64,000 bases of DNA from an uncultured delta proteobacterium (GCA_963765675.1 CAVXXK010000003.1:480001-544000); one strand, 5' to 3'. Positions 4,064 to 42,219 are shown, numbered from the stretch's first letter. Notes: generated from the sequence alone by a model not told the origin. A program made the numbers and translations.

Positions 4064-5494
4064 CTATGGGCCGTTCAGCCCCCAGATGTGTATTTGCCAG
4101 ATGCCGAAGGCGACCAGAAAGATCGATACGCAAATCAGGATTTTTGTGAGCTGATCGGTCCGGCGCGGCATCCCGATCGCCATCATCACGAGCAGAAACG
4201 GAAAAGCCGGGATATAATGACGAGTTCCGAACTGGGCAAAACCATTCGCATAGCAGAGCAGACTGGGTATCGAGACCAGCACCGCAGCCAGCCCCATCAT
4301 CGCAATAGTCAATCGTTTAAAGCTCGGCCTTAGCGCAAGCACGAAGGCGGGACTGGTCAGCGTGAGCGCCTGACCCGAGAAAACCGGATGAATATAGGGA
4401 AAGTTACTATTTACCGTGGGCGCCATGAACAGCACCGTGTACAGATTGCCAGGCAGATAGCGCAGCGAAAAAACCGCTGCGCCCTTGGGGCCGGTGAGCA
4501 TCACACCCTGATCAAAGAAGCTGCCGAAGCGCGCTTCGTTCAATCCAACGAAGATCACTCCCACCGCCAGGTAGCCCGGAATCATCTCGAGAATTTCAGC
4601 GAAGGTGCGGCCTTTGGCCAGCAACAAAATCGCATACACCGGCGCTACGAGTGCCAGGTCATATCTGCCGAGCGTCGCGATCGCCGCCCAAATTCCCACC
4701 CATAGCGGACGCGCCTCGCCGAAGAGCTCGATCAGGGCGAGCAGCGTGAAGATGATCGAGGTGTTCATCGGCAGCGCCCAGGTGGTGCCGAGCGTGGTCT
4801 CGTACCACAGCACGTTTCCCAGCCCGAAGAAGAGGGTCAGCCATACGCGCGAATTGAGGGTAAGCCGAAATCGTCCGAGCAAGATCCACGCAAGCGCGAT
4901 TGCGACGGCGCCGACTACGACCGAAAATTCCGTCTGGTTGGTGTCCATCCCCCAGATCGCCGTAAACGGCATCAGCATGATCGCCGGTAGCGGAGGATGC
5001 AGCGCGTAGCTGTACTGCCCGATCTGCACGTGCTCGAGGAATGACTGCGGTGCGTCGATATAGGTATGGCCGTGGATAAACGCGACCGCCTGACGCACTT
5101 GCTCGTTGAACGGCGACGGCGGATACATCGTAACCGCGTAGAACGCCAGGAACGCGATGAATACCGCGACGCCGGCCCATCCTTCGGACGACAGCACCGA
5201 GCGGATCCGGACAAGCATCGGGCCACCGGCATCGCTCTCGGCTCCGCGAACAATCGCAAACCCGGCCAACGCGAGCGCCGCCGCGATATAGATCAGAAAA
5301 TTCGAGGTCCGGTTCTGGCTCAGGAAATTTGGCGCAAAGACTGCGATCGCCGCAATTGCGAAGATCAAAAACCCGCGCGCGGTTGCAAAGAACTGCGCGT
5401 CCAGCGCGGCGCTCCGACCGGGATCCCGCCTTACCGCATCCGCGTCGGACCGGCGGACTAGTCGTGCGTATGCCTGTTCCACGTCGCCGCACAA
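4064..5494 (-). CDS. Polytopic membrane protein, probable GT-C-fold glycosyltransferase
   Basis: More than 10 hydrophobic segments, HPPLPA and QFGTRHY motifs, same strand and directly downstream of the YfhO-like and GtrB-like genes. Start uncertain. Confidence 0.55.
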   Translation of the reverse strand: MCGDVEQAYARLVRRSDADAVRRDPGRSAALDAQFFATARGFLIFAIAAIAVFAPNFLSQNRTSNFLIYIAAALALAGFAIVRGAESDAGGPMLVRIRSVLSSEGWAGVAVFIAFLAFYAVTMYPPSPFNEQVRQAVAFIHGHTYIDAPQSFLEHVQIGQYSYALHPPLPAIMLMPFTAIWGMDTNQTEFSVVVGAVAIALAWILLGRFRLTLNSRVWLTLFFGLGNVLWYETTLGTTWALPMNTSIIFTLLALIELFGEARPLWVGIWAAIATLGRYDLALVAPVYAILLLAKGRTFAEILEMIPGYLAVGVIFVGLNEARFGSFFDQGVMLTGPKGAAVFSLRYLPGNLYTVLFMAPTVNSNFPYIHPVFSGQALTLTSPAFVLALRPSFKRLTIAMMGLAAVLVSIPSLLCYANGFAQFGTRHYIPAFPFLLVMMAIGMPRRTDQLTKILICVSIFLVAFGIWQIHIWGLNGP

Positions 5495-5626
5495 TCTAGC
5501 AGATTCGCGCCTGGAACTTTACCGGCCCGTGGCCGCTCCGCTTGCCCTATACCCGAGTCTCGGCGGTGATTGAGCGACACATCAATGAAGCACTCCGCAC
5601 AAAACAATTCTGCCGCTGCGAAACCT

Positions 5627-7375
5627 TCACGATTCCTTCGCGCTATTCCGATACCGCTGTCGCCAAAATAGAATTACCGTGACCGCGCTGGTAAGCGCAA
5701 ATATCCATATACCAAGAATTGCCCAGGGCGCGCGATAAACGATCGTAAGCTTTTGGCTTCCCGCCGGTATGGTTACCGAGAGCACCGGGCGATTAGTGTC
5801 GATTGTAGCCGCGCCGTCACGAATCCGCCATCCTTTGTAATAATTCTGGTTGATTACCAGTACGTTCGCGCTGCGCGTGTTGACCTCGAACTGCAATTTC
5901 TCAGGCGTCCATTTTAATAGTCGTACGCTACCGGGCAGCAAAAGGTATTGCTCGCCGCGATAACCCGCCTGGTTGTATCCCCGCACCTGAGTGTCACTGA
6001 CATCCCAGAAGTTCGTCTCGTAACAATTGGCCGCACCGAGATTGGCCAAATTTAGAGGGAGCATGCCAATATTCGAAGGAGATGAATCGTAGTATTGGCG
6101 AAAGTCTGTTGAATACGCGGGAGTAGTAATTTTTCCCCCGGTGAAGGGCTCGGCGAGGCTGCCCGGCGAGACTAGAATGGCGTCGATCAGTCCCACCGCC
6201 AGTAAAGCGAGCGCCGCCCACCTTCGGCGCTCGAGTATGTATTCGGTTCCGAGCGCGGACAAGACCGCAAAGGCAAGCACGAATGGAATCAGGAATCGAA
6301 ACGGAGCGTAGGTTGATTCAAAGCCGGGCAACCGATGCAGCAGAACATACAGAGAATAAGGTGAGGTTCCGCCCATACCGAGCAGAAAGAAAATCAGCGC
6401 AGCGGCGGCCCAGGGCAGCGCTCGCGCCGGATATTTGATTAAGCCTGCCAGTCCCAGAAATGCGAACACAGCCCCGATATACGCTCCGTGCTCCCAGAAA
6501 CCACCTTCGCCCCAAGGACCGGCAAAATCCTGTTTGCGCGAGAAGATCGACAGGAGTGTCTTATAGAGACTCTCTTCGCTTAGGTACCCGAGCCGCGGAT
6601 GCGCGTGCATCAAGACGATCGCGGGGAAAAGCTTAAACGCAGCAAACCCCACAAAAAATATTCCAACGATCGCCGCTATAAACATTGGCCGCGGCGACCA
6701 TTCCATCACACACGCCGCGGCGCCGATGACCGCGACAAAGATAGCCAGTTGCAGAACCTCGTACATCGCACCTTCATAGCAGCACACGGCGACGAACAAA
6801 CCGGCGAGCGCCGCCCAAGCAGCGCTGCGTCGTTGAATTCCCATCCAAGTGAAGGCGCACACCCACGGCAGGTAGGCGCCGGCCAGATGCATCTCGTGAC
6901 CGGCCGCCGCATGCAATGGCAGCCACGAGCTGCCGGCGAAGACGATCGCGGCAGCAGCCGCTGCGATCGGCTTACAACTCACTGTCCGCGCGAGGACGTA
7001 GGCGCCGGCGAACGCCACGCTCAAATGCAGGGGTACTTCCAACTCGAGTCCGGCGAAAGGACCGAAGAATATCCGCAACAGCAAAAATGGCGACAGGAAA
7101 TCCGATTGCGGGTTCGCCAGCGAAGGCATACCGCCGCATTTGTATGGATTCCAGAACGGAAACTGGTGAAAGTGCGCGATCGTGCGCCAGTCCGACCATG
7201 ACCAATCCATCCCGCGCGACCAGTCCAGCGAGAGCGTCACCTGGCCGAAATGCCCAAACATCGGATAGCAGAACGCGAATCCAAAAATGAGCGAGATCAG
7301 CGAGACCGCGATCCATTCCTTGCTCCACCAAGCCGCCGTTCGATCGTTACCGGATATTTCGCCAGGTCTTGCCAA
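5627..7375 (-). CDS. YfhO-like GT-C membrane glycosyltransferase
   Basis: PFWNPY..GGMP.LANPQ N-terminal motif, many TM helices, C-terminal LVINQNYYKGW domain and a final TM helix. Confidence 0.8.
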   Translation of the reverse strand: MARPGEISGNDRTAAWWSKEWIAVSLISLIFGFAFCYPMFGHFGQVTLSLDWSRGMDWSWSDWRTIAHFHQFPFWNPYKCGGMPSLANPQSDFLSPFLLLRIFFGPFAGLELEVPLHLSVAFAGAYVLARTVSCKPIAAAAAAIVFAGSSWLPLHAAAGHEMHLAGAYLPWVCAFTWMGIQRRSAAWAALAGLFVAVCCYEGAMYEVLQLAIFVAVIGAAACVMEWSPRPMFIAAIVGIFFVGFAAFKLFPAIVLMHAHPRLGYLSEESLYKTLLSIFSRKQDFAGPWGEGGFWEHGAYIGAVFAFLGLAGLIKYPARALPWAAAALIFFLLGMGGTSPYSLYVLLHRLPGFESTYAPFRFLIPFVLAFAVLSALGTEYILERRRWAALALLAVGLIDAILVSPGSLAEPFTGGKITTPAYSTDFRQYYDSSPSNIGMLPLNLANLGAANCYETNFWDVSDTQVRGYNQAGYRGEQYLLLPGSVRLLKWTPEKLQFEVNTRSANVLVINQNYYKGWRIRDGAATIDTNRPVLSVTIPAGSQKLTIVYRAPWAILGIWIFALTSAVTVILFWRQRYRNSAKES

Positions 7376-7396
7376 TCGTGAAGCACTTCCACAGCG

Positions 7397-8422
7397 TCAG
7401 AAGTCGCGACGCTGATCGTCGAACCCCCAGGCGTCGCGGACCAGGTAAAGCGGGCGTCCCTTGACCTCCGTGTACACGCGCCCAAGGTATTCGCCGATCA
7501 CGCCCAAAGTAATCAATTGAATTCCGCCGAAGAACAGCACCACCACCATTAGCGACGTATAACCTGGCACGTCGATTCCCTTCCCGAGTTTGAGAATCGC
7601 CAAGAAGGTGGCGTAGAGAAACGCGAACAGAGAAACGATCACCCCAAGGTAGCTCCAGATCTTGAGCGGTAGGAAGCTGAACGAGGTGACCGCGTCGATC
7701 GCGAAGTTCCAGAGCCTCCAGTAGCTCCAGTTGGCGTGGCCCGCATGGCGCGGTGGCCGATGATACACGATCGCGGTCTGCCTGAAGCCAACCCAGGCGA
7801 ATAGTCCCTTCATGAAACGGCTGCGCTCGGGCAGGCGCACCAGAACCTCGACCACGCGGCGGTCGAGCAGGCGAAAGTCTCCGGTGTCGCGTGGAACCGG
7901 GACCTCGCTGACGCGGTGATAGATTTTATAAAAGAGACTCGCGGTAAGACGCTTGGCGAGGCTTTCGCCGCGGCGCGAAGCGCGGGTCGCGTAAACGACG
8001 TCAAAACCTTCGCGCCACTTGGCGACCATCTGCTCGATCAACTCAGGCGGATCCTGGAGGTCGGAATCGATCGGCACTACCGCGCGTCCGCTCGCGTAGT
8101 CGAGTCCCGCGCTGAGCGCGACGTCCTTTCCAAAATTACGTGAAAAATTTATGATCTTGATTGCTGAGTTGCGCTCCCGGAGAGCCAGCAGCATTGGCAG
8201 GGTGTCATCGGTGCTGCCGTCGTTGATACAGATCAGTTCGTAGGTGACGCCGATTTTGTCGATCACGCCGAGCACTCGCGCGATAAACTCTTCTAGATTT
8301 CCCGCCTCGTTGCGCATCGGCGCGACGATCGATAGATCGATCGCGGGTTCGGTCGCGGCAAGTGGCGATTCTTCGGTTGCGAAGCGAAGGGGGCGTAGGG
8401 CGCTCGGTGACTGCTCCATCAA
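7397..8422 (-). CDS. GtrB/YkcC-like GT2 polyprenyl-phosphate glycosyltransferase
   Basis: NDGSTD, SRNFGK, DSDLQDPPE, TGDFRLLDR, RFMKGL and two C-terminal TM helices. Confidence 0.92.
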   Translation of the reverse strand: MMEQSPSALRPLRFATEESPLAATEPAIDLSIVAPMRNEAGNLEEFIARVLGVIDKIGVTYELICINDGSTDDTLPMLLALRERNSAIKIINFSRNFGKDVALSAGLDYASGRAVVPIDSDLQDPPELIEQMVAKWREGFDVVYATRASRRGESLAKRLTASLFYKIYHRVSEVPVPRDTGDFRLLDRRVVEVLVRLPERSRFMKGLFAWVGFRQTAIVYHRPPRHAGHANWSYWRLWNFAIDAVTSFSFLPLKIWSYLGVIVSLFAFLYATFLAILKLGKGIDVPGYTSLMVVVLFFGGIQLITLGVIGEYLGRVYTEVKGRPLYLVRDAWGFDDQRRDF

Positions 8423-16468: not shown

Positions 16469-17989
16469 ATGGCAACCGCAATTTCCACCCAGCCGGTAGC
16501 TCAACCGCCGCTCGAAGGACCGCGCCTCGGCTTTGCGATCAAAACCTTCTACGGAGTCGGCTCGATCGCGTTCGGGGTCGAGACCGTGGCGCTCGGATCG
16601 CTGCTGTTGCTGTTTTTCAACCAGGTGGTCGGGCTGCCGGCGCCGTGGGTCGGAGCTGCGATCATGATCGCGCTGGTATTCGACGCGATCTTCGATCCGA
16701 TCGTGGGACAATGGTCCGATCATTTTCGCTCGCGGCTGGGCCGGCGGCATCCGTTCATGTACGCCTCCGCGCTGCCGCTGGCGGTCGCGTTCTATTTTCT
16801 GTGGAACCCGCCGCACGGATGGAGCAAGGGGGCGATGTTCGCGTACCTGATCACGCTGCTGATTTCGGTGCGGCTGCTCGTCAGCCTGTACGAGATTCCC
16901 AGCTCCGCGCTCGCGCCCGAGCTGACGCCGGACTACGACGAGCGCACCAGCTTGCTCAGCTACCGCTTCTTCTTCGGGATGATCGGCGGCACCGCGATGG
17001 CGATATTGGCGTTCCGGGTTTTTCTGCGCCAGGACGCAACTCACACGCTAGGCGTGCTCGACAGGGTGGGCTACGCGCGCTGGGGCCTGGTCGCCTCGAT
17101 CGTCATGTTCATCACGATCCTGATCACCTGCGTGGGCACGCAGGGCCGCGGGATCGATATCAAAACTCCGCCGCGAGTGGCCGGGAGCTTCTCCGGAAAC
17201 ATTCGGGAAATCATGACGACGTTATCGAACCGCTCGTTCCTGGCGCTGATGATCGCAGGGATCATTTCAGCGATCGCGGGCGGACTTTCCAGCGGCCTCG
17301 GCCTCTACATCACGACCTATTTCTGGGAGCTGACCTCGAAGGAAATTTCCTACCTGGTCGCGTTCGGTTTTTTCTCGGCGCTTCTGGGGGTCACGCTGGC
17401 GCCGATGGTCTCGAAGTGGATGGGCAAGAAGCGCGCGATGATCACGCTGTTCGCGATCTCGCTGGTCGCGAGCGTGATTCCGATTCCGCTGAAACTCATC
17501 GGCCTGATGCCACCGGCCCATTCGTTCGCGCTCATCGCGGCGCTGGTGGTGGACGGGGTCGTCCGTGACACACTCGGCATCATGGGCTTCATCATCGTGT
17601 CCTCGATGATGGCGGACGTGGTCGAGGATATCGCGGTGCACACGGGGCAGCGCTCCGAGGGGCTGCTGTTCGCGGCCAACGGGCTGTTGCAGAAGGTGGT
17701 TTCGGGCGGCGGTACTTTTGTTTCGGGATTGCTGCTCTCGTTCGTGCATTTTCCGCAGAATGCGGTGCAGGGCCACGTCGATCCGCTGATTTTGCGCCAT
17801 CTGGTTTTGATCTATGTTCCAATCACGGCGGCGTGCAGCGCGATCGCGATCGCAGTGCTGGGCTTCTACCGGATCGATCGCGCAAGCCATCAGCACAACC
17901 TCGAGCAACTGCGCGACGCCGGCGCGATCGCGCAGACGAGCCAGGCCGAAGCGATCGAAGGCATCACGCCGCTGACCCGCGCGATCTAG
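16469..17989 (+). CDS. GPH (MelB/XynT-like) MFS symporter
   Basis: DAIFDPIVGQWSD..RSRLGRRHPF, ELTPDYDERT and MMADVVE..GQRSEG motifs. Confidence 0.9.
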   Translation: MATAISTQPVAQPPLEGPRLGFAIKTFYGVGSIAFGVETVALGSLLLLFFNQVVGLPAPWVGAAIMIALVFDAIFDPIVGQWSDHFRSRLGRRHPFMYASALPLAVAFYFLWNPPHGWSKGAMFAYLITLLISVRLLVSLYEIPSSALAPELTPDYDERTSLLSYRFFFGMIGGTAMAILAFRVFLRQDATHTLGVLDRVGYARWGLVASIVMFITILITCVGTQGRGIDIKTPPRVAGSFSGNIREIMTTLSNRSFLALMIAGIISAIAGGLSSGLGLYITTYFWELTSKEISYLVAFGFFSALLGVTLAPMVSKWMGKKRAMITLFAISLVASVIPIPLKLIGLMPPAHSFALIAALVVDGVVRDTLGIMGFIIVSSMMADVVEDIAVHTGQRSEGLLFAANGLLQKVVSGGGTFVSGLLLSFVHFPQNAVQGHVDPLILRHLVLIYVPITAACSAIAIAVLGFYRIDRASHQHNLEQLRDAGAIAQTSQAEAIEGITPLTRAI

Positions 17990-28926: not shown

Positions 28927-29205
28927 TTAGTTGAGGCGCCAGATGGTGCGGGCGGCTTCGGCTGAACGCTCTACGAATTTGCGGCCGAGCTCGTGCTGCG
29001 CCGCGAAGACTGGGGCGAGCGGAGTCTCTTTGGCCCAGCTCGTCGCGCGTGCCTGCATGTCGAGCGCGTCGTTGGCGATCTTCTCGCTGGTCTCGATGTA
29101 CCAGGCGGCGAACTTCTTGGCGCCTTCGAGACTGAAATACTCGCGGCCGGCCTTTGCGATACTCTCGAAGCTCATCGTGCTTGCTTTCTCTTCTGCCACT
29201 GTCAT
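28927..29205 (-). CDS. Small helical phasin-like protein
   Basis: 92 aa amphipathic-helix pattern (IETSEKIANDALDMQ..W..TPLAPVF), GGAGG RBS, located directly downstream of phaC. Confidence 0.6.
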   Translation of the reverse strand: MTVAEEKASTMSFESIAKAGREYFSLEGAKKFAAWYIETSEKIANDALDMQARATSWAKETPLAPVFAAQHELGRKFVERSAEAARTIWRLN

Positions 29206-29282
29206 TGTCCTCCAAGGTCCGGCATCTACGGCCGGGGTTCTTTACAATCTAAGCATCAATTGACGCCACGCCCGTTTGCGTT

Positions 29283-29298
29283 GGTCGCGGACGCGACA
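29283..29298. promoter_or_regulatory. Candidate Crp-family box upstream of the phasin-like gene
   Basis: GGTCG-N6-CGACA, one mismatch to TGTCG-N6-CGACA. Confidence 0.45.
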
Positions 29299-29318
29299 AT
29301 TTTGTTGGATTTTCTCCG

Positions 29319-30392
29319 TTAACTTACTGGTGCGTCGCGGTCAGTCAGCCATCCGCCGATCGCGGGCCACAAATTTTTCAGCGCGTCACTCGAAACGGCG
29401 GCGCCCATGTGGCCGGTCGGATAATGGAAATTTTGTTTATCCTGGCTGCCGATCAGATCGGGCAGCGCCTCGCTCGACTTGGGATTGACGATATCGTCGT
29501 TGTCGCCGATCACGTTCATCACCGAGGCGACGACTTTTTTCAGATCGACGGTCACGCCGCCGACTTTCATTGTCCCTTTCATCAGAGCGTTGTGGATTCC
29601 AAGATCATTGTTGGTCTCGAGGAAGATCTTTCCGGCAAATGCAACGTCGCTATGCAGCCATTTTTCGAACAGGCGAAACATATCCAGGTAGCCGCGGCGC
29701 GCGGTGCTGCGATGGGCGCCGACGAACTTGTCGATCAGGTGATGCGTCGGCGCGAGCGTGTTGAAGAACGAGAAGATCATCCACGGCGGGACGTTGCCGT
29801 AGGTATCGACCAGCATCTTCGCGCCGGTTTCGGATAGCATCCGTGACATGAAATCGATCGGCAGGTCGCGCGTGCTCATGTCGAGCGGCAGCGTCAGCGT
29901 GACCAGGTTTTTGACGTTCTGCGGATGCAGGGCGGCATAGAGCAGCGCGAGTAATCCGCCGAAGCAGTAGCCGATGATCGAGACCTTCTCGACCCCGCGA
30001 TGGATCTGCACCGCGCGCACCGCGTTGGCGATATCCTCGTCAACGTATTCGTGGAAGCCGCGATTCTTGTCGGCGGCGACCGGTGGAATCCAGTCGATCA
30101 TGTAAACGTCGAACCCCTGGCGCGTGAGATTCTCGACCACGCTGCGCCCTTGCATCAGATCGAGGATAAACGGTCGTTTGATCAGCGAATAAATCAGCAG
30201 GACCGGCGTGTGATGCGCCGTGCCGGCGGCAGCGTAGTGGCGCAGGCGGACCTTGCCGCCCTCGTAGATGACGGTATAGGGCGTTGCGGTCGGAGGGTCG
30301 TTGCTTGCCTGGCCGAAACCGGTCGTGAACGCGTCGAGGGTGCGCAACGCCCCTTCCATCCAGAAGCCGGCAATTGAACTAATTGCTGACAT
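29319..30392 (-). CDS. phaC: Class III/IV polyhydroxyalkanoate synthase subunit PhaC
   Basis: 357 aa; TP...IY, SLIKRPFILDL, GYCFGG lipase box (catalytic Cys), GDNDDIV (Asp) and TGHMG (His). Confidence 0.88.
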   Translation of the reverse strand: MSAISSIAGFWMEGALRTLDAFTTGFGQASNDPPTATPYTVIYEGGKVRLRHYAAAGTAHHTPVLLIYSLIKRPFILDLMQGRSVVENLTRQGFDVYMIDWIPPVAADKNRGFHEYVDEDIANAVRAVQIHRGVEKVSIIGYCFGGLLALLYAALHPQNVKNLVTLTLPLDMSTRDLPIDFMSRMLSETGAKMLVDTYGNVPPWMIFSFFNTLAPTHHLIDKFVGAHRSTARRGYLDMFRLFEKWLHSDVAFAGKIFLETNNDLGIHNALMKGTMKVGGVTVDLKKVVASVMNVIGDNDDIVNPKSSEALPDLIGSQDKQNFHYPTGHMGAAVSSDALKNLWPAIGGWLTDRDAPVS

Positions 30393-30990
30393 TGGCCTTC
30401 ATCTCGGCGATCTCGCGCCCTTTGGGCATCGCCATTCCGGTGTAGAGCGGACGCTGGAAGCGGCCCGCGGTTGACATGATCGCGGCTTCGACATCGAAAC
30501 GCGGGTTGTCGCGCAGCTCGCGCGGATGCACCGGGGTGGTGGTCTCGATAACGCGCGCGGCGCTGACCGCGCGTGCGTCGGCGAGGTCCGCGCGCAACGC
30601 GGTGACTTCCTCGCGCATCGCGGCGACATCGTTCGCGGTCGGCAGGCCGATCGCGGGCCACAGGTTGGCGAAGATCGCGTTCGACAGCGCGGCGTTCAGG
30701 CGCTGCGCCCTGACCGCAAATTCCATCGCTCCCGAGGCGACGCGGCCGAATGCGGAATTGGTATAGACGCGGCTGGTAGCGTCGTTGGCGACTTTGACGA
30801 TCGCGTCGTACGCTTTCCATCCCGCTTCGTTGAGCTCGCGCTCATCGGTGCGGGCGAGTAGGCGCATAGTTGCCGCAATCGGCAGGTCGATCATGATCGC
30901 TTCTGCGATATCGACGATGCTGCGCATCGCGGCGGGCATCGTTGCCGGCAGCGTCGTGGATGCGTCTTTAATCTGCGGCCTGGTGCTCAT
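30379..30990 (-). CDS. Short PhaE/PhaR-like PHA synthase partner subunit
   Basis: 203 aa, overlaps the phaC start, carries a GLPTANDVAAMREEVTALRADL coiled-coil motif resembling PhaE C-termini. Confidence 0.6.
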   Translation of the reverse strand: MSTRPQIKDASTTLPATMPAAMRSIVDIAEAIMIDLPIAATMRLLARTDERELNEAGWKAYDAIVKVANDATSRVYTNSAFGRVASGAMEFAVRAQRLNAALSNAIFANLWPAIGLPTANDVAAMREEVTALRADLADARAVSAARVIETTTPVHPRELRDNPRFDVEAAIMSTAGRFQRPLYTGMAMPKGREIAEMKANVSN

Positions 30991-31094
30991 CTGATAGATT
31001 CTCCCCGGAATGGTTCCTTCGGTGTTTGTCAACTTTCGGTTTCAGTAGAATATCTGATAATTCAGATAGTACAACCATTAGAGTTACTTAAGTT

Positions 31095-31191: not shown

Positions 31192-31896
31192 GTGGCGCTG
31201 GAACATCCGCTTGACCCCAAGGCCCTGCATAAGCTCAAGAACTTCGCCTGGCTCGATGCCGGGCAGCTAACGATTCTGGCGGCAAATGCCGCTTCGATAC
31301 GCATCAAGCGCGGCGACAGTATCTTCTACGAGGGCGAGGCTTCGAGCCGCGTTTACGTGCTTATCTCCGGCGTTGCCAAGCTTTCTTTCCTTAAAGCCAA
31401 TGAACGCGTGCTGGTCGGACTGGTCGGTCCGGGCGAGGTCTTTGGCGCGTCTTCGCTGCTGCCCGAAACCACCCGCCCATTTCGATGCGACGCCTTCTCT
31501 GATTGCACGGTCGGTGCCATCAAGCCGCAGGTATTCGTCGAAACGGTGCTGGGAGTTCCACTCGAGGGTCTGTCGCGCACTCTGGAGATGACGGTCGGAC
31601 GATGGTGGTCGATGCTGCTGCGGTACGCGAACTTCGTCGGACTGGGATTGCGCGAGCGGTTGGCGGGCGCGCTGCTCGAGCTCGCGACCAAGTTCGGAGT
31701 GCGCGACTCGCGCGGGACGCTCTTGACGCTCAAGCTGACGCACGCCGACCTGGCGGAGCTGGTGGGCGCGTCGCGCCAGCGAATAACCGAACAGCTGATC
31801 GAGTTCGAGCGTGACGGAATTATTCTGCGCGAGGGTCGGCGATTGATTATCGTGCCCGAGAAGCTGTATCAGATCGCTCAGTCGCAGAACGCATGA
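31192..31896 (+). CDS. Crp/Fnr family transcriptional regulator
   Basis: cNMP-like domain (IFYEGE, GEVFG) and HTH LTHADLAELVGASRQRITEQL. Confidence 0.93.
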   Translation: MALEHPLDPKALHKLKNFAWLDAGQLTILAANAASIRIKRGDSIFYEGEASSRVYVLISGVAKLSFLKANERVLVGLVGPGEVFGASSLLPETTRPFRCDAFSDCTVGAIKPQVFVETVLGVPLEGLSRTLEMTVGRWWSMLLRYANFVGLGLRERLAGALLELATKFGVRDSRGTLLTLKLTHADLAELVGASRQRITEQLIEFERDGIILREGRRLIIVPEKLYQIAQSQNA

Positions 31897-31924
31897 AGCT
31901 GCGAATCTTTTGAGGTAGCAAGCG

Positions 31925-32782
31925 ATGGCAAACCCGGCGGCGCAGGTTAATCCGGCCGATAAATTTATCGAGGTCAAGGGGCTGCGGCTGCATTATCTCG
32001 ATTTCGGCGGCGACGGCCGCCCGTGGCTGGTATGCATTCACGGCCTCTCGGGCAACGCGCACAACTTCGATCAGATCGCTCCACGCCTGGCGCAGCGGTA
32101 TCACGTGCTCTCAGTCGATGTGCGCGGACGCGGCGACAGCGCGTGGGGTCCGCCGACCGAGTATCTGCCGAAGAATTACGTCGAGGACCTGGCGGCGATC
32201 CTCGAGCGACTGGGAATCGCGCGCGTCACGCTGGTCGGCACCTCGATGGGCGGGATCATCTCGATGATGTACGCAGGAGGATGGCCGGAGCGGGTCGAGC
32301 GGCTGGTGCTGAACGATATTGGGCCGGACATCGACCCGGCGGGCGCCGCGCGAATCGGTGCCTACATGGGCGTCGCGCCGGAACGCTTCAACGACATCGG
32401 CGAGGTGGCGGAATACTATCGCAAGACCTATCCAACAAACGCCAAGGTGCCGGAAGCGGAGCTGCGGGAGTCGGTAAAGTGGTCGGTCAAGCCTCTGGAC
32501 GGCGGCGGACTGGGATGGAAGATCGATCCGACGATTCGGCGTCCAATACGCGGCGCGACGGCACAGCAACGCCCTGATCTCTGGGTGCCGTTTGCACGCA
32601 TCACCTGCCCGGTCCTGGTGATCCGCGGCGCCGACAGCGACATCCTGTCGCAGCGCACAGCGGCCCAGATGAGCACGACCCACACGGGAGTAACGATCGT
32701 CGAAGTTCCGGGCGTAGGTCACGCGCCGTCACTCGCCGAGCCGGAGGCATCCTCGGCGCTCGCAAAATTCCTCGCGCTGTAG
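31925..32782 (+). CDS. Alpha/beta hydrolase
   Basis: IHGL, DVRGRGDS, GTSMGG, RGADSD and VGHAP motifs. Confidence 0.9.
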   Translation: MANPAAQVNPADKFIEVKGLRLHYLDFGGDGRPWLVCIHGLSGNAHNFDQIAPRLAQRYHVLSVDVRGRGDSAWGPPTEYLPKNYVEDLAAILERLGIARVTLVGTSMGGIISMMYAGGWPERVERLVLNDIGPDIDPAGAARIGAYMGVAPERFNDIGEVAEYYRKTYPTNAKVPEAELRESVKWSVKPLDGGGLGWKIDPTIRRPIRGATAQQRPDLWVPFARITCPVLVIRGADSDILSQRTAAQMSTTHTGVTIVEVPGVGHAPSLAEPEASSALAKFLAL

Positions 32783-32928
32783 CGCCTGGCGAGTATTTTC
32801 GCTCGAAAAATAAATTTTGCGTGGTAACTATATTGATCTAAGTTCAGATGTAGTTTGACACCGGGCAGCGGAGTCCGGCCGGAAAGCGATTGGCGCGGGT
32901 TGAAATGTCAACTCACGGGAGGTGCGCG

Positions 32929-34275
32929 ATGCCTGCAAGAGCTTTCAACCTGTCCGCGAGGGTATTCATCGCGACAGCCACCGGCATAGCGGCAATCGCG
33001 ATCGCTGCCGGGAATGTGGCGCGGGCCACGATGCCGCCGCCGAAACCGGGAGCGTCGGCCGAACCCAAATCGGCAGACCAGACCGGCTTTCCCGCCCTGC
33101 TCTATCAATGGAGCTCGCCGGCCGATAATCCGCAAAGCGCGGCCAAAGTCGCACTGGGCAAGGATCTGTTTTTCGACCCGCGGATCTCGGTGGACAACAC
33201 GGTCGCGTGCGCCAACTGCCACGACCCTGACAAGGGTTTCACCGATCAGTTGCCAACCGCGATGGGCGTGCATGGCAAGTTCGGCCAGCGCAACGCGCCC
33301 ACCGTCCTCGATGCGATGTTCAATATCGAGCAGTTCTGGGACGGGCGCGCGCCGACGCTGGAAGATCAGGCCGGGCAACCGATCCTGAATCCGATCGAGA
33401 TGGGGAACCCGGATCAGCAAACCGTAGTGAACAAGCTCAATTCGATTCCTGACTACCGACAAGGTTTTCAGCAGGTTTTCGGCGCGGCGCCCAGCTACGT
33501 GAACATGGAGCGCGCGATCGCCGCGTACGAGCGCACGCAAATCGCCTTCGACTCGCCGTTCGATCACTTCATGGCGGGAGACGCGAGCGCACTCACCGCG
33601 CAGCAACAGCGCGGATGGGCGATCTTCAACGGGCAGGGACGCTGCATGTCGTGCCACGGATGGAATCCGACCCGGCCAACCTTCACCGACGATCGCTTTC
33701 ACAATATCGGCGTGTCGGCGCACGACGCGCAGTTCGTTCCGCACGCGCGCGAGGCGCTCGCACTGCTTGCCAGCGGTGGCGGAGGCGTGCAGCAGATCGA
33801 TCGGCTCGCGATCTCGACCGACATGAGCCAGCTCGGACGCTTCCTGGTGACCAAACAGCCGCACGATATCGGCTCTTTCAGGACCATGGACCTGCGCAAT
33901 CTGTACGTCACCGAGCCGTACTTCCACGATGGATCGCAGAAGACGATCTGGGACACGCTCGATCACTACAACAAGGGCGGCGTACCCAATCCGTTCCTCG
34001 ACGGCGGGATCACGCCGCTCGGCCTCAGCGAAAAGCAGGAGGACGACCTCGCGGCGTTCCTGCTCTCGCTCACCAGCAAGAGCTACATGGAGCAAGCCAA
34101 GGCCGAGTACGAGCGCCAATTCAAAGAGTCGAGGACCACACGGCCGCAGCGCGACACCGCCGCGGCGATGGGACAGATCGGACGCGACGGTCCGGGCTTC
34201 GCGGGGCCATTTGGGGATATCGGACCGGGCGAGGCCGCGATGCAGGAAAGTCCCGCGCAGCTTGGCGGAGACTGA
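32929..34275 (+). CDS. Di-heme bCcP/MauG superfamily enzyme, exported
   Basis: Signal peptide, CANCH and CMSCH heme motifs, RNAPT, QFWDGR, Q..P..NP.EM, PYFHDG and DHYNKGG; GGAGG RBS. Confidence 0.92.
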   Translation: MPARAFNLSARVFIATATGIAAIAIAAGNVARATMPPPKPGASAEPKSADQTGFPALLYQWSSPADNPQSAAKVALGKDLFFDPRISVDNTVACANCHDPDKGFTDQLPTAMGVHGKFGQRNAPTVLDAMFNIEQFWDGRAPTLEDQAGQPILNPIEMGNPDQQTVVNKLNSIPDYRQGFQQVFGAAPSYVNMERAIAAYERTQIAFDSPFDHFMAGDASALTAQQQRGWAIFNGQGRCMSCHGWNPTRPTFTDDRFHNIGVSAHDAQFVPHAREALALLASGGGGVQQIDRLAISTDMSQLGRFLVTKQPHDIGSFRTMDLRNLYVTEPYFHDGSQKTIWDTLDHYNKGGVPNPFLDGGITPLGLSEKQEDDLAAFLLSLTSKSYMEQAKAEYERQFKESRTTRPQRDTAAAMGQIGRDGPGFAGPFGDIGPGEAAMQESPAQLGGD

Positions 34276-34328
34276 GGGTACGCGAGTATCGCGCATTCGT
34301 CGTTTCATCGGCGGGAGAGGACAAGACC

Positions 34329-35477
34329 ATGGCAATCCGGCACAAGAGTATCGAGACAAAATTTTACGAAGATCGCGAGCGCGTGATGAAGGCGCTGCGC
34401 AACTGCGACCGGCGCACGTTCCTGAAAATCACCGCCGCAACGATGGGCGCGGTGATGGCCAAGGGCCTGATGCCACCGCATACGTTCCAGCTGGTCGAGG
34501 TCGCCAACGCCGCCGTCACAAAAGGATGGGACAGTGCCGGCGCGCAGGGCGCCCTGCCCTTTCGCTTCGCGTATATCTCGGACGCGCACCTATACGAGCG
34601 GACGCTCAATCAGCGCTTCGTGCGCGCGATCGTCAAGGCGGTCGATGACGTCAACGCGCTCGATCCGCAACCCGACTTCGTACTCTACGGCGGCGACCTG
34701 GCGCAGCTCGGCAGCGCGGCGCAGCTCGAACTCGGCAAGCAAATCTTGAGCGGTCTCAAGGCGCCGGTGAAGATGATGGTCGGCGAGCATGACTGGTTCC
34801 TCGACCTGGGCGTGAAGTGGCAGGAGCTGTTCGGGCCGCCGACTTACTCGTTTGACTGGAAGGGGGTGCACGTCGTGGTCCTGCAGAGCGTGTACGAGAA
34901 CGATTTCTGGACCGCGCGCAAGATGACGCCGGAAGAGCGGATGCAGACCGTCGCCGGTCTTGACAACGGAATCCAGGGGCGCTTCCAGGTCGGCGCGGCG
35001 CAGCGCGAATGGCTCAAGAAAAATCTGGCGAACGTTCCCGTCACCACGCCGATTCTCGTGTTCTCGCACTCGCCGCTCTACAAATATTATCGCAACTGGA
35101 ATTTCTGGACCGAAGACGCCGACCAGGTGCAGGCGATCCTGAAGCCGTACAACAAGGTCACCGTGATCCATGGGCATACGCATCAGATGTTGTTCAATCA
35201 GATCGGAAACATCAGCTTCTACGGGATGCTCTCGACGGCGTGGCCGTGGCCCTACGCACCGGAGGGGTTGCCGCCGCTGACGATCCAGATGAACCGCGCC
35301 GATCCGTTCGATCAGTTCGACGGATGCGGCGACGGCCAGTTCGACGCGCGCGCCGACGGCCTGGTCGATACCATCTACAATTTGTGGGATCGCAATCCGG
35401 TCACGGTGAAGGCGAGTTACCTGACCTCGGGCGGCAAGGTTGATCGTCCGCCCGCGCCGCAGTTTGCGAGCTACTGA
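34329..35477 (+). CDS. Tat-exported calcineurin-like metallophosphoesterase
   Basis: DRRTFLK twin-arginine motif; SDAH, GGDL, GEHD, FSH and HGHTH metal-binding motifs. Confidence 0.9.
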   Translation: MAIRHKSIETKFYEDRERVMKALRNCDRRTFLKITAATMGAVMAKGLMPPHTFQLVEVANAAVTKGWDSAGAQGALPFRFAYISDAHLYERTLNQRFVRAIVKAVDDVNALDPQPDFVLYGGDLAQLGSAAQLELGKQILSGLKAPVKMMVGEHDWFLDLGVKWQELFGPPTYSFDWKGVHVVVLQSVYENDFWTARKMTPEERMQTVAGLDNGIQGRFQVGAAQREWLKKNLANVPVTTPILVFSHSPLYKYYRNWNFWTEDADQVQAILKPYNKVTVIHGHTHQMLFNQIGNISFYGMLSTAWPWPYAPEGLPPLTIQMNRADPFDQFDGCGDGQFDARADGLVDTIYNLWDRNPVTVKASYLTSGGKVDRPPAPQFASY

Positions 35478-35483
35478 GAGGGG

Positions 35484-36269
35484 ATGATGAAAGCTCAATC
35501 CAAACTGATTACTACTGCGATACTCAGTGCGCTTGCTGGCGGCGTGATAATCGGCGCATGGACAATTTATCCTCACACTCGCGCGGCTTACGCGCAATCT
35601 GCGCCGACTCATTCAGTGCCACAGGCGACGGCGGGCGGCATCGTCGTCGAGTTATGCGACGGGGTGACTCACACAGAGGTTACCGGCCTCAAGCCCGGGC
35701 AGCCGATGTCACATGCGCAGGCGCTCGCCGTCACCGGCAAGCTGATGGCCGAGTGGCAGCGAAAGCATCCGGACGAGAAATGGCAGATGGCGCAAGCGGG
35801 CGACCAGCCGGCGCCCGGCACGGCGGAGCCCGCGGCGTCTGCCTCCGGCAACGCGTCAAAGAATATCGGCGGCCCCGGGGCGGCGGAACAAGGCGCCAAG
35901 CTCAAGAGCCAGCAGGGCGATACCTACGCGAGCTTTCACGATCGCGATTATAAAGTGTGGAAGGCCGAGACCGACGCCTTCGTCGCGCGCGGCAGTGAGA
36001 TATTCCATTCCAGCAAGTTGCTCGGCAGCACCATCGGCGTGAGCTGCGACATGTGCCATCCCAACGCCGCGAATACTCATCCCGAGACCTACCCGAAGTA
36101 CCAGGAGCAGCTACAAAAAGTCGCGCTGCTGCGCGACATGATCGACTGGTGCATCGAGAATCCGGTCAAGGGCAAGACGCTCGACCCCAACGACCCGAAT
36201 CTGCGCGCGCTCGAAGCGTACATCCTTGCGTCGCGCAAAGGCGTGCCGCTCGACTATGGCAAGCACTGA
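35484..36269 (+). CDS. Exported monoheme c-type cytochrome with a SoxA/TsdA-like domain
   Basis: N-terminal hydrophobic segment, single CDMCH, and a YPKY...LRDMIDWCIENPVKG...LRALEAYI pattern like SoxA/TsdA heme domains. Confidence 0.8.
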   Translation: MMKAQSKLITTAILSALAGGVIIGAWTIYPHTRAAYAQSAPTHSVPQATAGGIVVELCDGVTHTEVTGLKPGQPMSHAQALAVTGKLMAEWQRKHPDEKWQMAQAGDQPAPGTAEPAASASGNASKNIGGPGAAEQGAKLKSQQGDTYASFHDRDYKVWKAETDAFVARGSEIFHSSKLLGSTIGVSCDMCHPNAANTHPETYPKYQEQLQKVALLRDMIDWCIENPVKGKTLDPNDPNLRALEAYILASRKGVPLDYGKH

Positions 36270-39802: not shown

Positions 39803-40987
39803 ATGGATTTCAATTACAGCGCTGAAGACGAGAACTTCCGCACCGAATTCCGCGCGTGGCTCGAAGCGAACAAGCAGTTCGCACCGCATCGCGCCGAAGT
39901 GATGGGCGATGAAGGCGGCAGCGGATGGGACGCGCAAGTGCGCTGGGCCAAAAAACTCAGCGAGGGACGCTGGCTCGCCGTCAATTGGCCCAAGGAATAC
40001 GGCGGGCGCAGCCTGAGCGTGATGCAGACGATCATCTACAACGAGGAGCTCGCGCGCGCGGGGCTCGCCGCGCCGATGATCGGAATGGGCATCAGCCTGC
40101 TCGGGCCGACGCTGATTCATTGGGGCACCGACGAGCAGAAGCAGCAACATATTCCGAAGATCCTGAAGGCCGAGGAAATCTGGTGCCAGGGATATTCGGA
40201 GCCCGGCTCGGGCTCGGACCTCGCGTCGCTGCAGACCCGCGCGGTCGAAGACGGCGACGACTACGTCGTCAACGGGCAGAAGGTATGGACCTCGGCGGCG
40301 CAGCACGCGGACTGGATTTTCCTGCTGACGCGGACCGATCCCGCAGCGCCGAAGCACAAGGGTATCAGCTATCTGCTGGTCGATATGAAATCTCCGGGAG
40401 TGACCGTGCGTCCACTGGTGCAGATCACCGGCGGCCGCGGTTTCAACGAAGTTTTTTTCGAAGACGTGCGCGTGCCGAAGAAAAATCTGGTCGGCGAGAA
40501 GAACGCCGGATGGCAGGTCGCGATCACGACGCTGATGTTCGAGCGATCGGGCGGCGGCGGAGATCGCGGCGCGATGTTCCAGGTGCGCGAGCTGGTCAAT
40601 CTTGCCAAGAAGCTTCCGCGCGATGGGAAGACCGCGTGGGACGACGCCGGCGTGCGCCAGAAAATCTCAGAGTTCGCGTGCGAGGCTTACGCGCTCAAGT
40701 ACACCGGCTATCGGCAGCTCACGCGGCGGCTCAAGGGGATGCCGCCGGGACCGGAGGGCTCGATGATGAAGCTGTGCGGCACGGAGCTTAATCTGCGCAT
40801 GCAGCTCTTTGCGATGGAGCTGCTCGGGCCGTACTCGCAATTCGAGTATCACGCGCCGATGGCTATCGATCACGGCAAGTGGTCATTCCGGATGCTCGCG
40901 GCGCGCGGCGGTACAATCGCGGCCGGTACCAATCAGATTCAGCACAATATAATCGGCGAACGCGTCCTCGGCCTGCCAAAGGGTTGA
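39803..40987 (+). CDS. Acyl-CoA dehydrogenase (paralog 1)
   Basis: WCQGYSEPGSGSDLA, NGQKVWTS, FNEVFF, LMFER and IIGERVLGLPK motifs. Confidence 0.95.
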   Translation: MDFNYSAEDENFRTEFRAWLEANKQFAPHRAEVMGDEGGSGWDAQVRWAKKLSEGRWLAVNWPKEYGGRSLSVMQTIIYNEELARAGLAAPMIGMGISLLGPTLIHWGTDEQKQQHIPKILKAEEIWCQGYSEPGSGSDLASLQTRAVEDGDDYVVNGQKVWTSAAQHADWIFLLTRTDPAAPKHKGISYLLVDMKSPGVTVRPLVQITGGRGFNEVFFEDVRVPKKNLVGEKNAGWQVAITTLMFERSGGGGDRGAMFQVRELVNLAKKLPRDGKTAWDDAGVRQKISEFACEAYALKYTGYRQLTRRLKGMPPGPEGSMMKLCGTELNLRMQLFAMELLGPYSQFEYHAPMAIDHGKWSFRMLAARGGTIAAGTNQIQHNIIGERVLGLPKG

Positions 40988-41034: not shown

Positions 41035-42219
41035 ATGGATTTCAATTACACGCCTGAAGACGAAGCCTTTCGCAGCGAGTTGCGCACCTGGCTCGAAGCC
41101 AACAAAAAGTTCGCTCCCGCGCCGAGCAATATCATGGCCAACGAGGGCGAAGGCGAGTGGGAAGCGCGCGTGCGCTGGCATAAGAAGCTCAACGAGGGCG
41201 GCTGGGTGGCGGTCAATTGGCCCAAGCAGTACGGCGGACGCGGAGCCAGCGTGATGCAGCGGCTCATCTTTCGCGAGGAGCTTTCGCGCCTGGGCCTCAA
41301 CGAACCGTTCATCGGCATGGGCATCAGCCTGCTCGGCCCGACGCTGATGCATTGGGGAACCGAAGCGCAGAAACAGAATCATCTGCCGAAAATCCAGAAG
41401 GGCGAAGAAGTCTGGTGCCAAGGCTATTCCGAACCGGGCGCGGGCTCCGACCTTGCCGGATTGCAGACGCGCGCGGTCGAGGACGGCGACGACTTCGTCG
41501 TCAACGGACAGAAAGTGTGGACCTCGATGGCGCAGCATGCGGACATGATTTTCCTGCTGGTGCGCACCGATCCCTCCGCGCCGAAGCATAAGGGGATCAG
41601 CTACCTGCTGGTCGATATGCATAGCCCCGGAATCACGGTGCGTCCGCTGGTCCAAATCACCGGCGGCAAGGGGTTCAACGAAGTATTTTTCGAAGACGTG
41701 CGCGTGCCGCGCAAGAATATCGTCGGCGAGCTGAACAACGGATGGCAAGTCGCGATGACCACGCTGATGTTCGAGCGCGGCGGTGGCGGCGGCGAAAACG
41801 CGCTCGGCGAGGTTCAGGAGCTGGTCGATCTGGCCAAGCGGCTTCCGCGTAACGGCGCAACCGCGTGGGACGATTCGAGCGTGCGCCAGAAAGCGGCGGA
41901 GTTCGCGGCCGACGCCCTCGCGCTCAAGTACACCGGCTATCGCCAGTTGACGCGCCAGCTAAAGGGGATGCCGCCGGGGCCGGAAGGCTCGATGATGAAG
42001 CTGTGCAGCACCGAGCTCGGACTGCGCATCGCGCTGTTTGCGATGGAACTCCTCGGGCCGTACAGCCAGCTCGAGTTCGGCGCGCCGTTCTCGGTCGACA
42101 AGGGCAAGTGGTCATTCCGGATGTTGTCCGCGCGCGGACCGACAATCTACGCCGGCACCAATCAGATCCAGCACAACATCATCGGCGAGCGAGTGCTCGG
42201 GCTGCCGAAGGGATCGTAA
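41035..42219 (+). CDS. Acyl-CoA dehydrogenase (paralog 2)
   Basis: Same motifs as paralog 1 and highly similar throughout. Confidence 0.95.
   Translation: MDFNYTPEDEAFRSELRTWLEANKKFAPAPSNIMANEGEGEWEARVRWHKKLNEGGWVAVNWPKQYGGRGASVMQRLIFREELSRLGLNEPFIGMGISLLGPTLMHWGTEAQKQNHLPKIQKGEEVWCQGYSEPGAGSDLAGLQTRAVEDGDDFVVNGQKVWTSMAQHADMIFLLVRTDPSAPKHKGISYLLVDMHSPGITVRPLVQITGGKGFNEVFFEDVRVPRKNIVGELNNGWQVAMTTLMFERGGGGGENALGEVQELVDLAKRLPRNGATAWDDSSVRQKAAEFAADALALKYTGYRQLTRQLKGMPPGPEGSMMKLCSTELGLRIALFAMELLGPYSQLEFGAPFSVDKGKWSFRMLSARGPTIYAGTNQIQHNIIGERVLGLPKGS

Follow-up and report, generated by a model that had tools for sequence, protein, structure and literature searches.

Near the middle of the stretch of DNA analysed here (64,000 nt from an uncultured delta proteobacterium, GCA_963765675.1 CAVXXK010000003.1:480001-544000; "the window" in what follows), three tightly spaced genes encode a di-haem enzyme (A), a metallophosphoesterase (MPE)-fold protein (B), and a mono-haem cytochrome c (C). 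Our favoured reading, a tentative one that we would put a little short of an even chance, is that this triad is a periplasmic redox module, with B and C as its core and A as an oxidant partner that uses H2O2. An earlier note on this DNA had proposed a maturation or redox system centred on A and acting on the hydrolase; the redox half of that proposal is favoured here, while its centring on A gives way to a B-C core. The redox half is preferred to the maturation half because distant homologues of B pair with electron carriers in loci without a di-haem gene, two of them also with a cbb3-type oxidase. The genes, and the ribosome-binding site of the first, are located as follows:

32917..32922, + strand: ribosome-binding site GGGAGG, 6 nt 5′ of the gene A ATG (sequence reading)
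32929..34275, + strand: gene A, predicted exported di-haem enzyme of the bacterial cytochrome c peroxidase (bCcP)/MauG superfamily, Tyr type, 448 aa (PF03150, 196.3 bits)
34329..35477, + strand: gene B, MPE-fold dimetal protein, predicted to be exported by twin-arginine translocation (Tat), 382 aa (PF00149, structural model, Foldseek)
35484..36269, + strand: gene C, predicted exported or anchored mono-haem cytochrome c, 261 aa (PF21342, 37.4 bits)

The gaps between these co-directional genes are 53 nt (A-B) and 6 nt (B-C), just as the earlier note had them. All three proteins score above their Pfam cut-offs (A, CCP_MauG, 196.3 vs. 25.6; B, Metallophos, 53.4 vs. 21.5; C, SoxA-TsdA_cyt-c, 37.4 vs. 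27). A purine-rich ribosome site lies closely upstream of each gene, and because GGGAGG stands 6 nt ahead of the ATG at 32929, this codon rather than the upstream TTG at 32890 is taken as the start of A. Of the export signals previously assigned to all three, that of B is an invariant twin-arginine motif (below); those of A and C appear likely from N-terminal hydrophobic segments, judged by eye, together with CXXCH motifs. Close relatives are labelled Candidatus Binataceae. Full-text searches, with subscription-only literature outside their scope, found no paper on this gene combination, in line with the earlier view that it has no assigned function.

The arrangement of the triad is not a product of chance. 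A genome scan, at one genome per species, gave at least 600 pattern matches, 584 of them confirmed; in 79 of the best 80 of these, A, B, and C occur in the same order and on the same strand, the conserved synteny on which the earlier proposal depended, and the sequence of the other locus (L056) begins at a contig end that falls within B. Identity across these loci is 63-97% for B, 44-93% for A, and 35-93% for C. Between A and B the median gap over 79 loci is 17 nt, and in 5 of them the genes overlap; only A-B gaps are reported, since the first in-frame start of C often lies far upstream, making B-C distances unreliable. Clustering of open reading frames (ORFs) over the 80 loci revealed no fourth conserved gene (chaperone, transporter, or regulator): the next clusters, in at most 27 loci each, are overlapping-frame artefacts or lineage-local neighbours.

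Many soil bacteria carry the cassette. By phylum, the 80 loci comprise 27 from Myxococcota, 15 from Pseudomonadota, 11 from Binatota, 6 from Planctomycetota, 2 each from Acidobacteriota and Thermodesulfobacteriota, and 17 unlabelled. The Myxococcota carriers include cultured Cystobacter, Corallococcus, Myxococcus, Pyxidicoccus, Hyalangium, Chondromyces, and Minicystis, and those among the Pseudomonadota include Methylocella. The tree of A mixes taxa, and on a plasmid of Methylocystis sp. MJC1 (NZ_CP107559.1; L081) the cassette is flanked by a Tn3-family transposase on one side and an IS6 transposase on the other; on these two grounds it is regarded as an autonomous, horizontally moving unit. 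Features at this plasmid locus lie at 4701-7676 and 16534-17205, and in the annotation the third gene of its cassette is given a late start and called simply a hypothetical protein. In metagenomes, matches to A, B, and C often have the same longest-contig values (e.g., 4729, 5401, 54446, 138456), which suggests contigs that carry the whole triad and so gives a soft, independent hint of synteny.

The following features of B were located:

34404..34427, + strand: twin-arginine motif CDRRTFLK, aa 26-33 (alignment)
34782..34796, + strand: GEHDW, MPE motif III, with Glu153 in the usual place of Asn (alignment)
35061..35186, + strand: motif IV, FSHSPLYKYYRNWNFW, with His247, and motif V, HGHTHQ, with His283 and His285 (alignment)
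35232..35261, + strand: STAWPWPYAP, with the invariant W305-P-W307-P-Y309 loop (81 of 81 rows)

The AlphaFold model of B (predicted local distance difference test, pLDDT, 80.4) is confident except in the signal region, and its best Foldseek matches are GpdQ (2zo9), Rv0805 (3ib7), and purple acid phosphatases, in agreement with the Pfam assignment of the fold. Four of the MPE motifs are intact, namely DxH (D85, H87), GD (D123), H247, and GHxH (H283, H285, aligned with H195 and H197 of GpdQ); H154 is also kept. Motif III, for which the MPE consensus is GNH(D/E), reads GEHD instead: Glu153 falls in the column of Asn80, a metal ligand, of the GpdQ "GNHD," and is present in all 81 cassette rows and in most distant relatives, including the Rhizobiaceae and Ralstonia homologues described below. 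Over the same 81 rows, which come from several phyla, 141 of the 382 positions are at least 97% invariant. Invariant aromatic residues are W156, W164, W194, W228, W257, W260, W305, W307, and W353, with Y251, Y254, and Y309. The WPWPY loop is probably at the active site; W305 corresponds to GpdQ His217, which we take to be an active-site residue, in a second HMMER stretch that scores weakly (0.7 and 6.2 bits). The replacement of Asn by Glu, the predicted Tat export, and the many invariant aromatics would fit a redox-active dimetal centre.

R28, R29, and F31 of the twin-arginine motif are found in all 81 rows. Pfam TAT_signal scores 17.1 on B, below its cut-off of 22.7; DRRTFLK with the hydrophobic stretch that goes with it nonetheless resembles the Tat-substrate pattern (S/T-R-R-x-F-L-K plus a hydrophobic stretch) closely enough to make B a predicted Tat substrate. 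The segment ahead of the motif (residues 1-27, 34329-34409) is unusually long and conserved, with a predicted helix at 8-24 and S7, E9, T10, and R16 at least 97% invariant. In this it recalls the Tat leaders to which dedicated chaperones bind; the cassette has no chaperone gene.

The B family is compact, with 2126 representatives (50% clustering) at E ≤ 1e-3 and 107 at E ≤ 1e-30, and the ESM Atlas returned generic metallophosphoesterase clusters only. Proteins of this GEHD-variant family are now annotated as cAMP phosphodiesterases or "Icc protein," which is probably wrong. B falls far below the cut-offs for class III cyclic-nucleotide/glycerophosphodiesterases (36.5 vs. 225 for CpdA, NF008359; 33 vs. 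400 for SpdA).

A tblastn search of a plasmid collection with B found distant homologues at four loci (L087-L090). Those of Phyllobacterium zundukense (L088, 5104-10798) and Rhizobium gallicum (L090, 5093-10695) are 44-47% identical to B, and the WPW loop is kept in these Rhizobiaceae proteins (in Phyllobacterium both GEHDW and WPWPYAPEG). At both loci the order is a 238-aa protein, the MPE, a SoxA/TsdA cytochrome of 154-164 aa, a COX1-like subunit, and a FixO-cytochrome c fusion, with SCO1/SenC, hemA, and groEL upstream. The 238-aa protein has a C-terminal CarboxypepD_reg domain and a CDAHGWM motif, making it putatively blue-copper-like. This operon of Rhizobiaceae and Phyllobacteriaceae plasmids may itself be an oxidase system that has yet to be characterised. 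An identification with the sNOR "norSY-senC-orf1" cluster was considered and dropped, orf1 not being described in the available part of PMC4940428.

The first three genes of this order recur in S. meliloti (L087), where they adjoin a flavocytochrome c sulfide dehydrogenase (FCSD) flavoprotein, a cytochrome c, soxZ, and soxY. Here soxY, soxZ, and the flavoprotein lie on the opposite strand, with IS66 upstream of the B homologue and a recombinase gene beyond soxY. The SoxA/TsdA-type cytochrome directly after the MPE gene is an unannotated ORF of 115 aa (7183-7530). The homologue on the Ralstonia solanacearum megaplasmid (L089) is 34% identical to B and keeps GEHD, with the WPW loop lost; a cupredoxin (CxxxCxxxHxxM motif) follows 2 nt after it, and an extracytoplasmic function (ECF) sigma/anti-sigma pair lies ahead.

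No homologue of A was found at any of these four loci within the fetched flanks (E ≤ 1e-3). Since distant B homologues thus keep a SoxA-like cytochrome or a cupredoxin without a di-haem gene, we regard B-C as the core and A as exchangeable; and since A sits where the oxidase sits in the sister operons, it would be the oxidant-side partner using H2O2. B itself always travels with a small electron carrier, and twice with a terminal oxidase, making it unlikely to be a plain hydrolase.

In cytochrome C, two regions stand out:

35607..35783, + strand: N-terminal beta-beta-alpha domain, aa 42-100, with Cys58, Met88, Trp91, and Trp100 (block pLDDT 73-91)
36039..36164, + strand: haem site, SCDMCHP (C188, C191, H192) and LRDMIDWCIENP with Cys223, the predicted sixth ligand

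A structural model gives C an N-terminal hydrophobic helix, the beta-beta-alpha domain (42-100), a disordered linker (~101-146), and a haem domain of SoxA/TsdA type; with a mean pLDDT of 62, the model was used only for the N-domain and for ranking TsdA and SoxA matches. Its best Foldseek matches are TsdA (4v2k) and SoxA (1h31). Membership in PF21342 is indicated by the score above cut-off and by a Cys at the axial-ligand position. C188, C191, H192, H199, M219, and C223 are present in all 78 non-gap rows, and Cys223 lines up with the "INACRTS" Cys of SoxA 1h31, the ligand of haem 1 in that protein. From the conservation of this Cys and the fold matches, the haem of C is most likely His/Cys-ligated. 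C scores 33.5 against the SoxA equivalog (TIGR04484, cut-off 110), and the cassette has no SoxX-like gene.

The N-domain has no Pfam match and no usable ESM Atlas match. Cys58 is present in 74 of 80 rows, Met88 and Trp91 in 79 of 80 each, and Trp100 in all 79 non-gap rows. The domain occurs only in cassette-type C: the homologues at L087, L088, and L090 do not have it, their matches beginning at aa 160-167. One homologue of C (P0139, 349 aa) has two copies of the Cys-containing N-terminal domain, and at two cassette loci (L077 and L053) the N-domain has no Cys.

In the di-haem protein A the recognisable features are:

33208..33222, + strand: haem-1 (peroxide-side) attachment motif CANCH, aa 94-98
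33337..33399, + strand: inter-haem Trp137 (QFWDGR) and distal Gln147, Pro151, and Glu157 (alignment with Paracoccus MauG)
33643..33657, + strand: haem-2 attachment motif CMSCH, aa 239-243
33961..33981, + strand: DHYNKGG with Tyr347 (codon 33967-33969), the predicted haem-2 distal ligand (alignment)
34114..34272, + strand: C-terminal tail, aa 396-448, containing RPQRD (alignment)

Its score above the Pfam gathering threshold and its two CXXCH motifs place A in the PF03150 superfamily. C94, C97, and H98 are present in all 78 non-gap rows, and H243 in 80 of 80. Reference rows for comparison (Paracoccus denitrificans MauG, Methylobacterium MauG, Methylocystis MbnH, and a Mesorhizobium cytochrome c peroxidase) were fetched from plasmids. 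W137 (codon 33337-33339), Q147, P151, and E157 (within 33367-33399), and Y347 share columns with W113, Q123, P127, E133, and Y314 of the Paracoccus MauG precursor, which after a 20-residue offset are W93, Q103, P107, E113, and Y294 of the mature protein (mature numbering follows titles of MauG papers cited in the available part of PMC6405878). The Q/P/E set at haem 1 and the Trp of QFWDGR had been recognised in the earlier note, as had the Tyr at 33967 where a Met ligand might be expected; this last aligns with MauG Tyr294 and is Tyr in all 79 non-gap cassette rows. Its column also holds MbnH Y317, Methylobacterium MauG Y305, and the Tyr of "DIY" in PDB 6e1c; Met298 of the Mesorhizobium peroxidase falls there too, although a second MAFFT run has a gap in its place.

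A Tyr at this position puts A, by alignment, in the predicted Tyr/His-ligated (MauG-like) subgroup; the Met distal ligand that marks canonical bCcPs is missing, and a neighbouring Met, at position 344, is found in only 35 of 80 rows. H115 was considered as a bCcP-type distal His and rejected, being His in only 28 of 78 rows. Among the 78 orthologue rows, position 137 is Trp in 69 and Leu in 9. The replacement by Leu recalls BthA, which has Ser there (PMC6405878, in the part available).

In NCBIfam, MbnH (TIGR04039) is the first match to A, at 220.5 bits against a cut-off of 362.85, and MauG (TIGR03791) the second, at 199.3 bits against 443.85, so that by curated thresholds A is assigned to neither family. 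Its N-terminal, peroxide-side domain is nearest to canonical peroxidases of solved structure, at 146-172 bits (171.5 for the first stretch of 9qdt); its C-terminal domain matches these poorly (12-20 bits). For the C-terminal half the best PDB match is 6e1c, at 47.4 bits, with canonical peroxidases at no more than 24.7. The 6e1c record is labelled only "Di-heme enzyme"; we take it to be MbnH. A quick maximum-likelihood tree of 29 rows (20 cassette proteins, two MauG, MbnH, and six other references) places all 20 cassette proteins in one clade (SH-aLRT, the Shimodaira-Hasegawa-like approximate likelihood ratio test, 92), with no reference row inside. Deeper branches in it are long and unresolved, and canonical peroxidases are represented by a single Met-type row, with which A does not group; the separation from canonical peroxidases expected in the earlier note holds to this extent. 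The cassette proteins also have a C-terminal tail of ~50 residues that the MauG, MbnH, and peroxidase reference rows do not, with a conserved RPxRD in which R405, R408, and D409 are nearly invariant in the cassette alignment.

In the scheme we favour, the three genes would make up a single operon, complete in itself and horizontally mobile, that encodes a periplasmic redox module. The core of the module would be B, a Tat-exported dimetal MPE-fold protein with Glu for Asn, together with C and its likely His/Cys haem. A, as a Tyr/His MauG-type enzyme, would react with H2O2 and draw electrons from B-C, directly or via C; in the sister operons a cbb3-type oxidase takes the oxidant partner's place and would deliver electrons to O2. 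The proteins would form a complex and, as the net reaction, oxidise a small substrate in the periplasm, catalytically rather than once, with the electrons going to H2O2. The leading candidate for this substrate, held with low confidence, is a sulfur oxyanion such as thiosulfate, because C is of SoxA/TsdA ancestry and soxYZ are neighbours in one locus.

Several points weigh against this scheme. No sulfur-oxidation genes adjoin the cassette within the window. B may be a mere phosphohydrolase, since all hydrolytic MPE residues except the Asn are kept. The His/Cys haems of SoxA and TsdA are low-potential catalytic centres, not simple wires, so that C may be the reaction site rather than a carrier. 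The di-haem-free sister operons amount to four loci, all from a plasmid-only collection with incomplete gene tables, and the cassette loci inspected, as the best of those confirmed, all have B at 63% identity or above. Finally, the Tyr-ligated members with a known role, MauG and MbnH, are both maturases of a neighbouring gene product, as far as the available parts of PMC6405878 and PMC11951088 describe them. Hole transfer would run the same way, from B/C through A to H2O2, in catalytic oxidation and in one-off synthesis of a cofactor, and the data fit both.

A maturase role for A is the alternative to take most seriously, if in our judgement a somewhat unlikely one. With H2O2, A would reach a bis-Fe(IV) state and by long-range oxidation install a protein-derived cofactor, either at Trp or Tyr residues of B (e.g., in the W305-P-W307 loop) or in the N-domain of C (Cys58, Met88, Trp91, Trp100), and the matured B-C would then do the work, by analogy with MauG/pre-methylamine dehydrogenase (preMADH)/amicyanin and MbnH/MbnP. 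MauG and MbnH set a precedent, each modifying a Trp in the product of a neighbouring gene. A shares with MauG the Tyr and the distal residues, its C-terminal half is nearest to 6e1c, and the N-domain of C is found only where A is present (in cassette loci, and in 0 of 3 di-haem-free loci). The invariant WPW of B, weakly aligned with GpdQ His217, also parallels the conserved WxW motif in which the MbnP Trp that becomes kynurenine is located (PMC11951088, available part), and a MauG-type gene beside methanethiol oxidase has likewise been proposed to encode a maturase (PMC6548844, available part). One argument against it is that in the Rhizobiaceae homologues of B every candidate Trp and Tyr is still present, those of WPWPYAPEG included, with no A gene within 6 kb; another is that A is strictly stoichiometric in gene order and overlaps B in some loci. 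A bolder proposal, in our view unlikely, would make B the first MPE-fold oxidoreductase, with a Tat-loaded Fe or Mn dimetal centre wired via Trp and Tyr to carriers, and A supplying bis-Fe(IV) oxidising power. A would then either drive catalytic oxidation of a substrate, as a peroxide-linked respiratory or detoxifying branch, or build a Trp-derived cofactor (WPW loop) at the dimetal site.

A specific version of the redox model, compact Sox-like oxidation of sulfur oxyanions, we consider decidedly unlikely. The His/Cys haem of C would couple thiosulfate to Cys223 or to the tethered Cys58, B would hydrolyse the sulfonate off in the manner of SoxB, itself of the MPE superfamily, and A would pass two electrons to H2O2. 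The PF21342 membership of C, its best fold and sequence matches (TsdA and SoxA), and its conserved ligand Cys would suit this, as would the FCSD flavoprotein, soxY, and soxZ beside the S. meliloti B-cytochrome pair and the presence in cassette C of a Cys-bearing domain on a disordered linker of ~45 residues; the short cytochromes of L087, L088, and L090 have no such domain, and soxYZ are nearby only in the first of these. B has no specific likeness to SoxB, however, its best matches being GpdQ, Rv0805, and purple acid phosphatases; C falls short of the SoxA equivalog; Cys58 is missing in 6 of 80 rows; the partner of the Ralstonia homologue is a cupredoxin, not a His/Cys cytochrome; and the S. 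meliloti soxYZ genes have the opposite orientation and share their region with IS66 and a recombinase gene. Very improbable, finally, is peroxide defence beside an unrelated phosphatase, with A as peroxidase, C as its donor, and B as a phosphate-scavenging esterase, or, in a variant, a purple-acid-phosphatase-like B redox-switched by C and A. The N-terminal domain of A does score highest against canonical peroxidases (9qdt), Tyr-ligated BthA still reduces H2O2 with an external donor (PMC6405878, in the part available), and B keeps its hydrolytic residues, with a likeness to purple acid phosphatases around HSPLY. Against this, B is mid-operon in all 79 complete loci, is the most conserved of the three proteins, and keeps a redox-protein neighbour even where there is no A, and the distal ligand position of A is Tyr, not Met.

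The triad shares features with several known systems and departs from each. Like the mau cluster, it encodes a di-haem enzyme with MauG-type Tyr, inter-haem Trp, and distal Gln/Pro/Glu beside a periplasmic enzyme and a small electron carrier; A is nevertheless below the MauG cut-off and outside both MauG rows in the tree, no mauA, mauB, or mauJ is near (no mau genes occur among the annotated window neighbours), the neighbour is of MPE fold, and the carrier is a cytochrome of His/Cys type, not a cupredoxin. MbnH/MbnP, in which a Trp becomes kynurenine and copper is bound, is similar in that MbnH is the top NCBIfam match of A and in the WxW of its partner (PMC11951088, available part) compared with the WPW of B. 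It differs in that A is below the cut-off, no MbnP-family gene is present, and the Methylocystis MbnH row is outside the cassette clade. BthA/BthB of Burkholderia, of unassigned function, is Tyr-ligated, MauG-like, and widely conserved without a mau operon, according to the available part of PMC6405878; BthA matches A weakly (6nx0, 64.4 bits), its neighbours differ, and its Ser at the inter-haem position (same source) is Trp in most cassette A proteins. Canonical di-haem peroxidases have a very similar N-terminal domain and, as here, may be co-encoded with a c-type cytochrome; the haem-2 Tyr of A, its poorly matching C-terminal domain, and the distal-type His in only 28 of 78 rows set it apart.

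SoxB is Tat-exported, as B is predicted to be. The SoxAX/SoxB/SoxYZ and TsdA systems also share with the triad the haem domain of C with its ligand Cys, the superfamily of B, and the soxYZ genes adjoining one sister locus. Unlike them, C has one haem and no SoxX partner, B is GpdQ- or purple-acid-phosphatase-like rather than 5′-nucleotidase- or SoxB-like, and the cassette contains no soxYZ or soxCD. From GpdQ, Rv0805, and purple acid phosphatases, with which it shares its fold and motifs I, II, IV, and V, B differs by the Glu in place of the motif III Asn, extra inserts, the WPWPY loop, the Tat motif, and its constant pairing with redox proteins.

Few Tyr-ligated di-haem enzymes have known jobs, and each has revealed unusual protein chemistry (tryptophan tryptophylquinone, TTQ, and kynurenine-copper sites). 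If B were an MPE-fold oxidoreductase powered by A, this would be new enzymology for both families. With fixed partners, a distribution over at least six phyla that includes cultured myxobacteria and methanotrophs, and mobility, the cassette makes the question of orphan MauG-like enzymes directly testable, and three small soluble proteins suffice for the purpose. It also flags a GEHD-variant phosphatase-fold family that is always found alongside electron carriers or terminal oxidases. In the BthA study the superfamily was mapped into canonical, MauG, and Burkholderia clusters, with the genomic contexts of the MauG network neighbours left unexplored, according to the part of PMC6405878 available.

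The genes annotated around the triad in the window are thematically unrelated to it. They encode an enoyl-CoA hydratase, alpha/beta hydrolases, an FHA protein, a Crp-family regulator, a beta-lactamase-fold hydrolase, a Zn-dehydrogenase, a glyoxalase, two acyl-CoA dehydrogenases, and a GntR-aminotransferase. A promoter scan was uninformative (0 sigma-70-like sites; 5 terminator-like sites vs. 3.4 expected). Directly upstream on the same strand (31192-32782) are the Crp/Fnr-family regulator (cNMP_binding and HTH_Crp_2 domains) and an alpha/beta hydrolase, and the 146-nt spacer 5′ of gene A contains an imperfect dyad, TTGATCTAAGTTCAG (32833-32847). The regulator is not kept beside the cassette in other loci.

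The two acyl-CoA dehydrogenases (39803-40987 and 41035-42219) are tandem paralogues, both 394 aa long and closely alike in sequence. On the − strand, at 28927-31032, an alpha/beta hydrolase of 357 aa, which has a GYCFGG box, is encoded beside proteins of 217 and 92 aa that have no Pfam match, a trio that we take to resemble a class III polyhydroxyalkanoate (PHA) synthase with its partner and a phasin.

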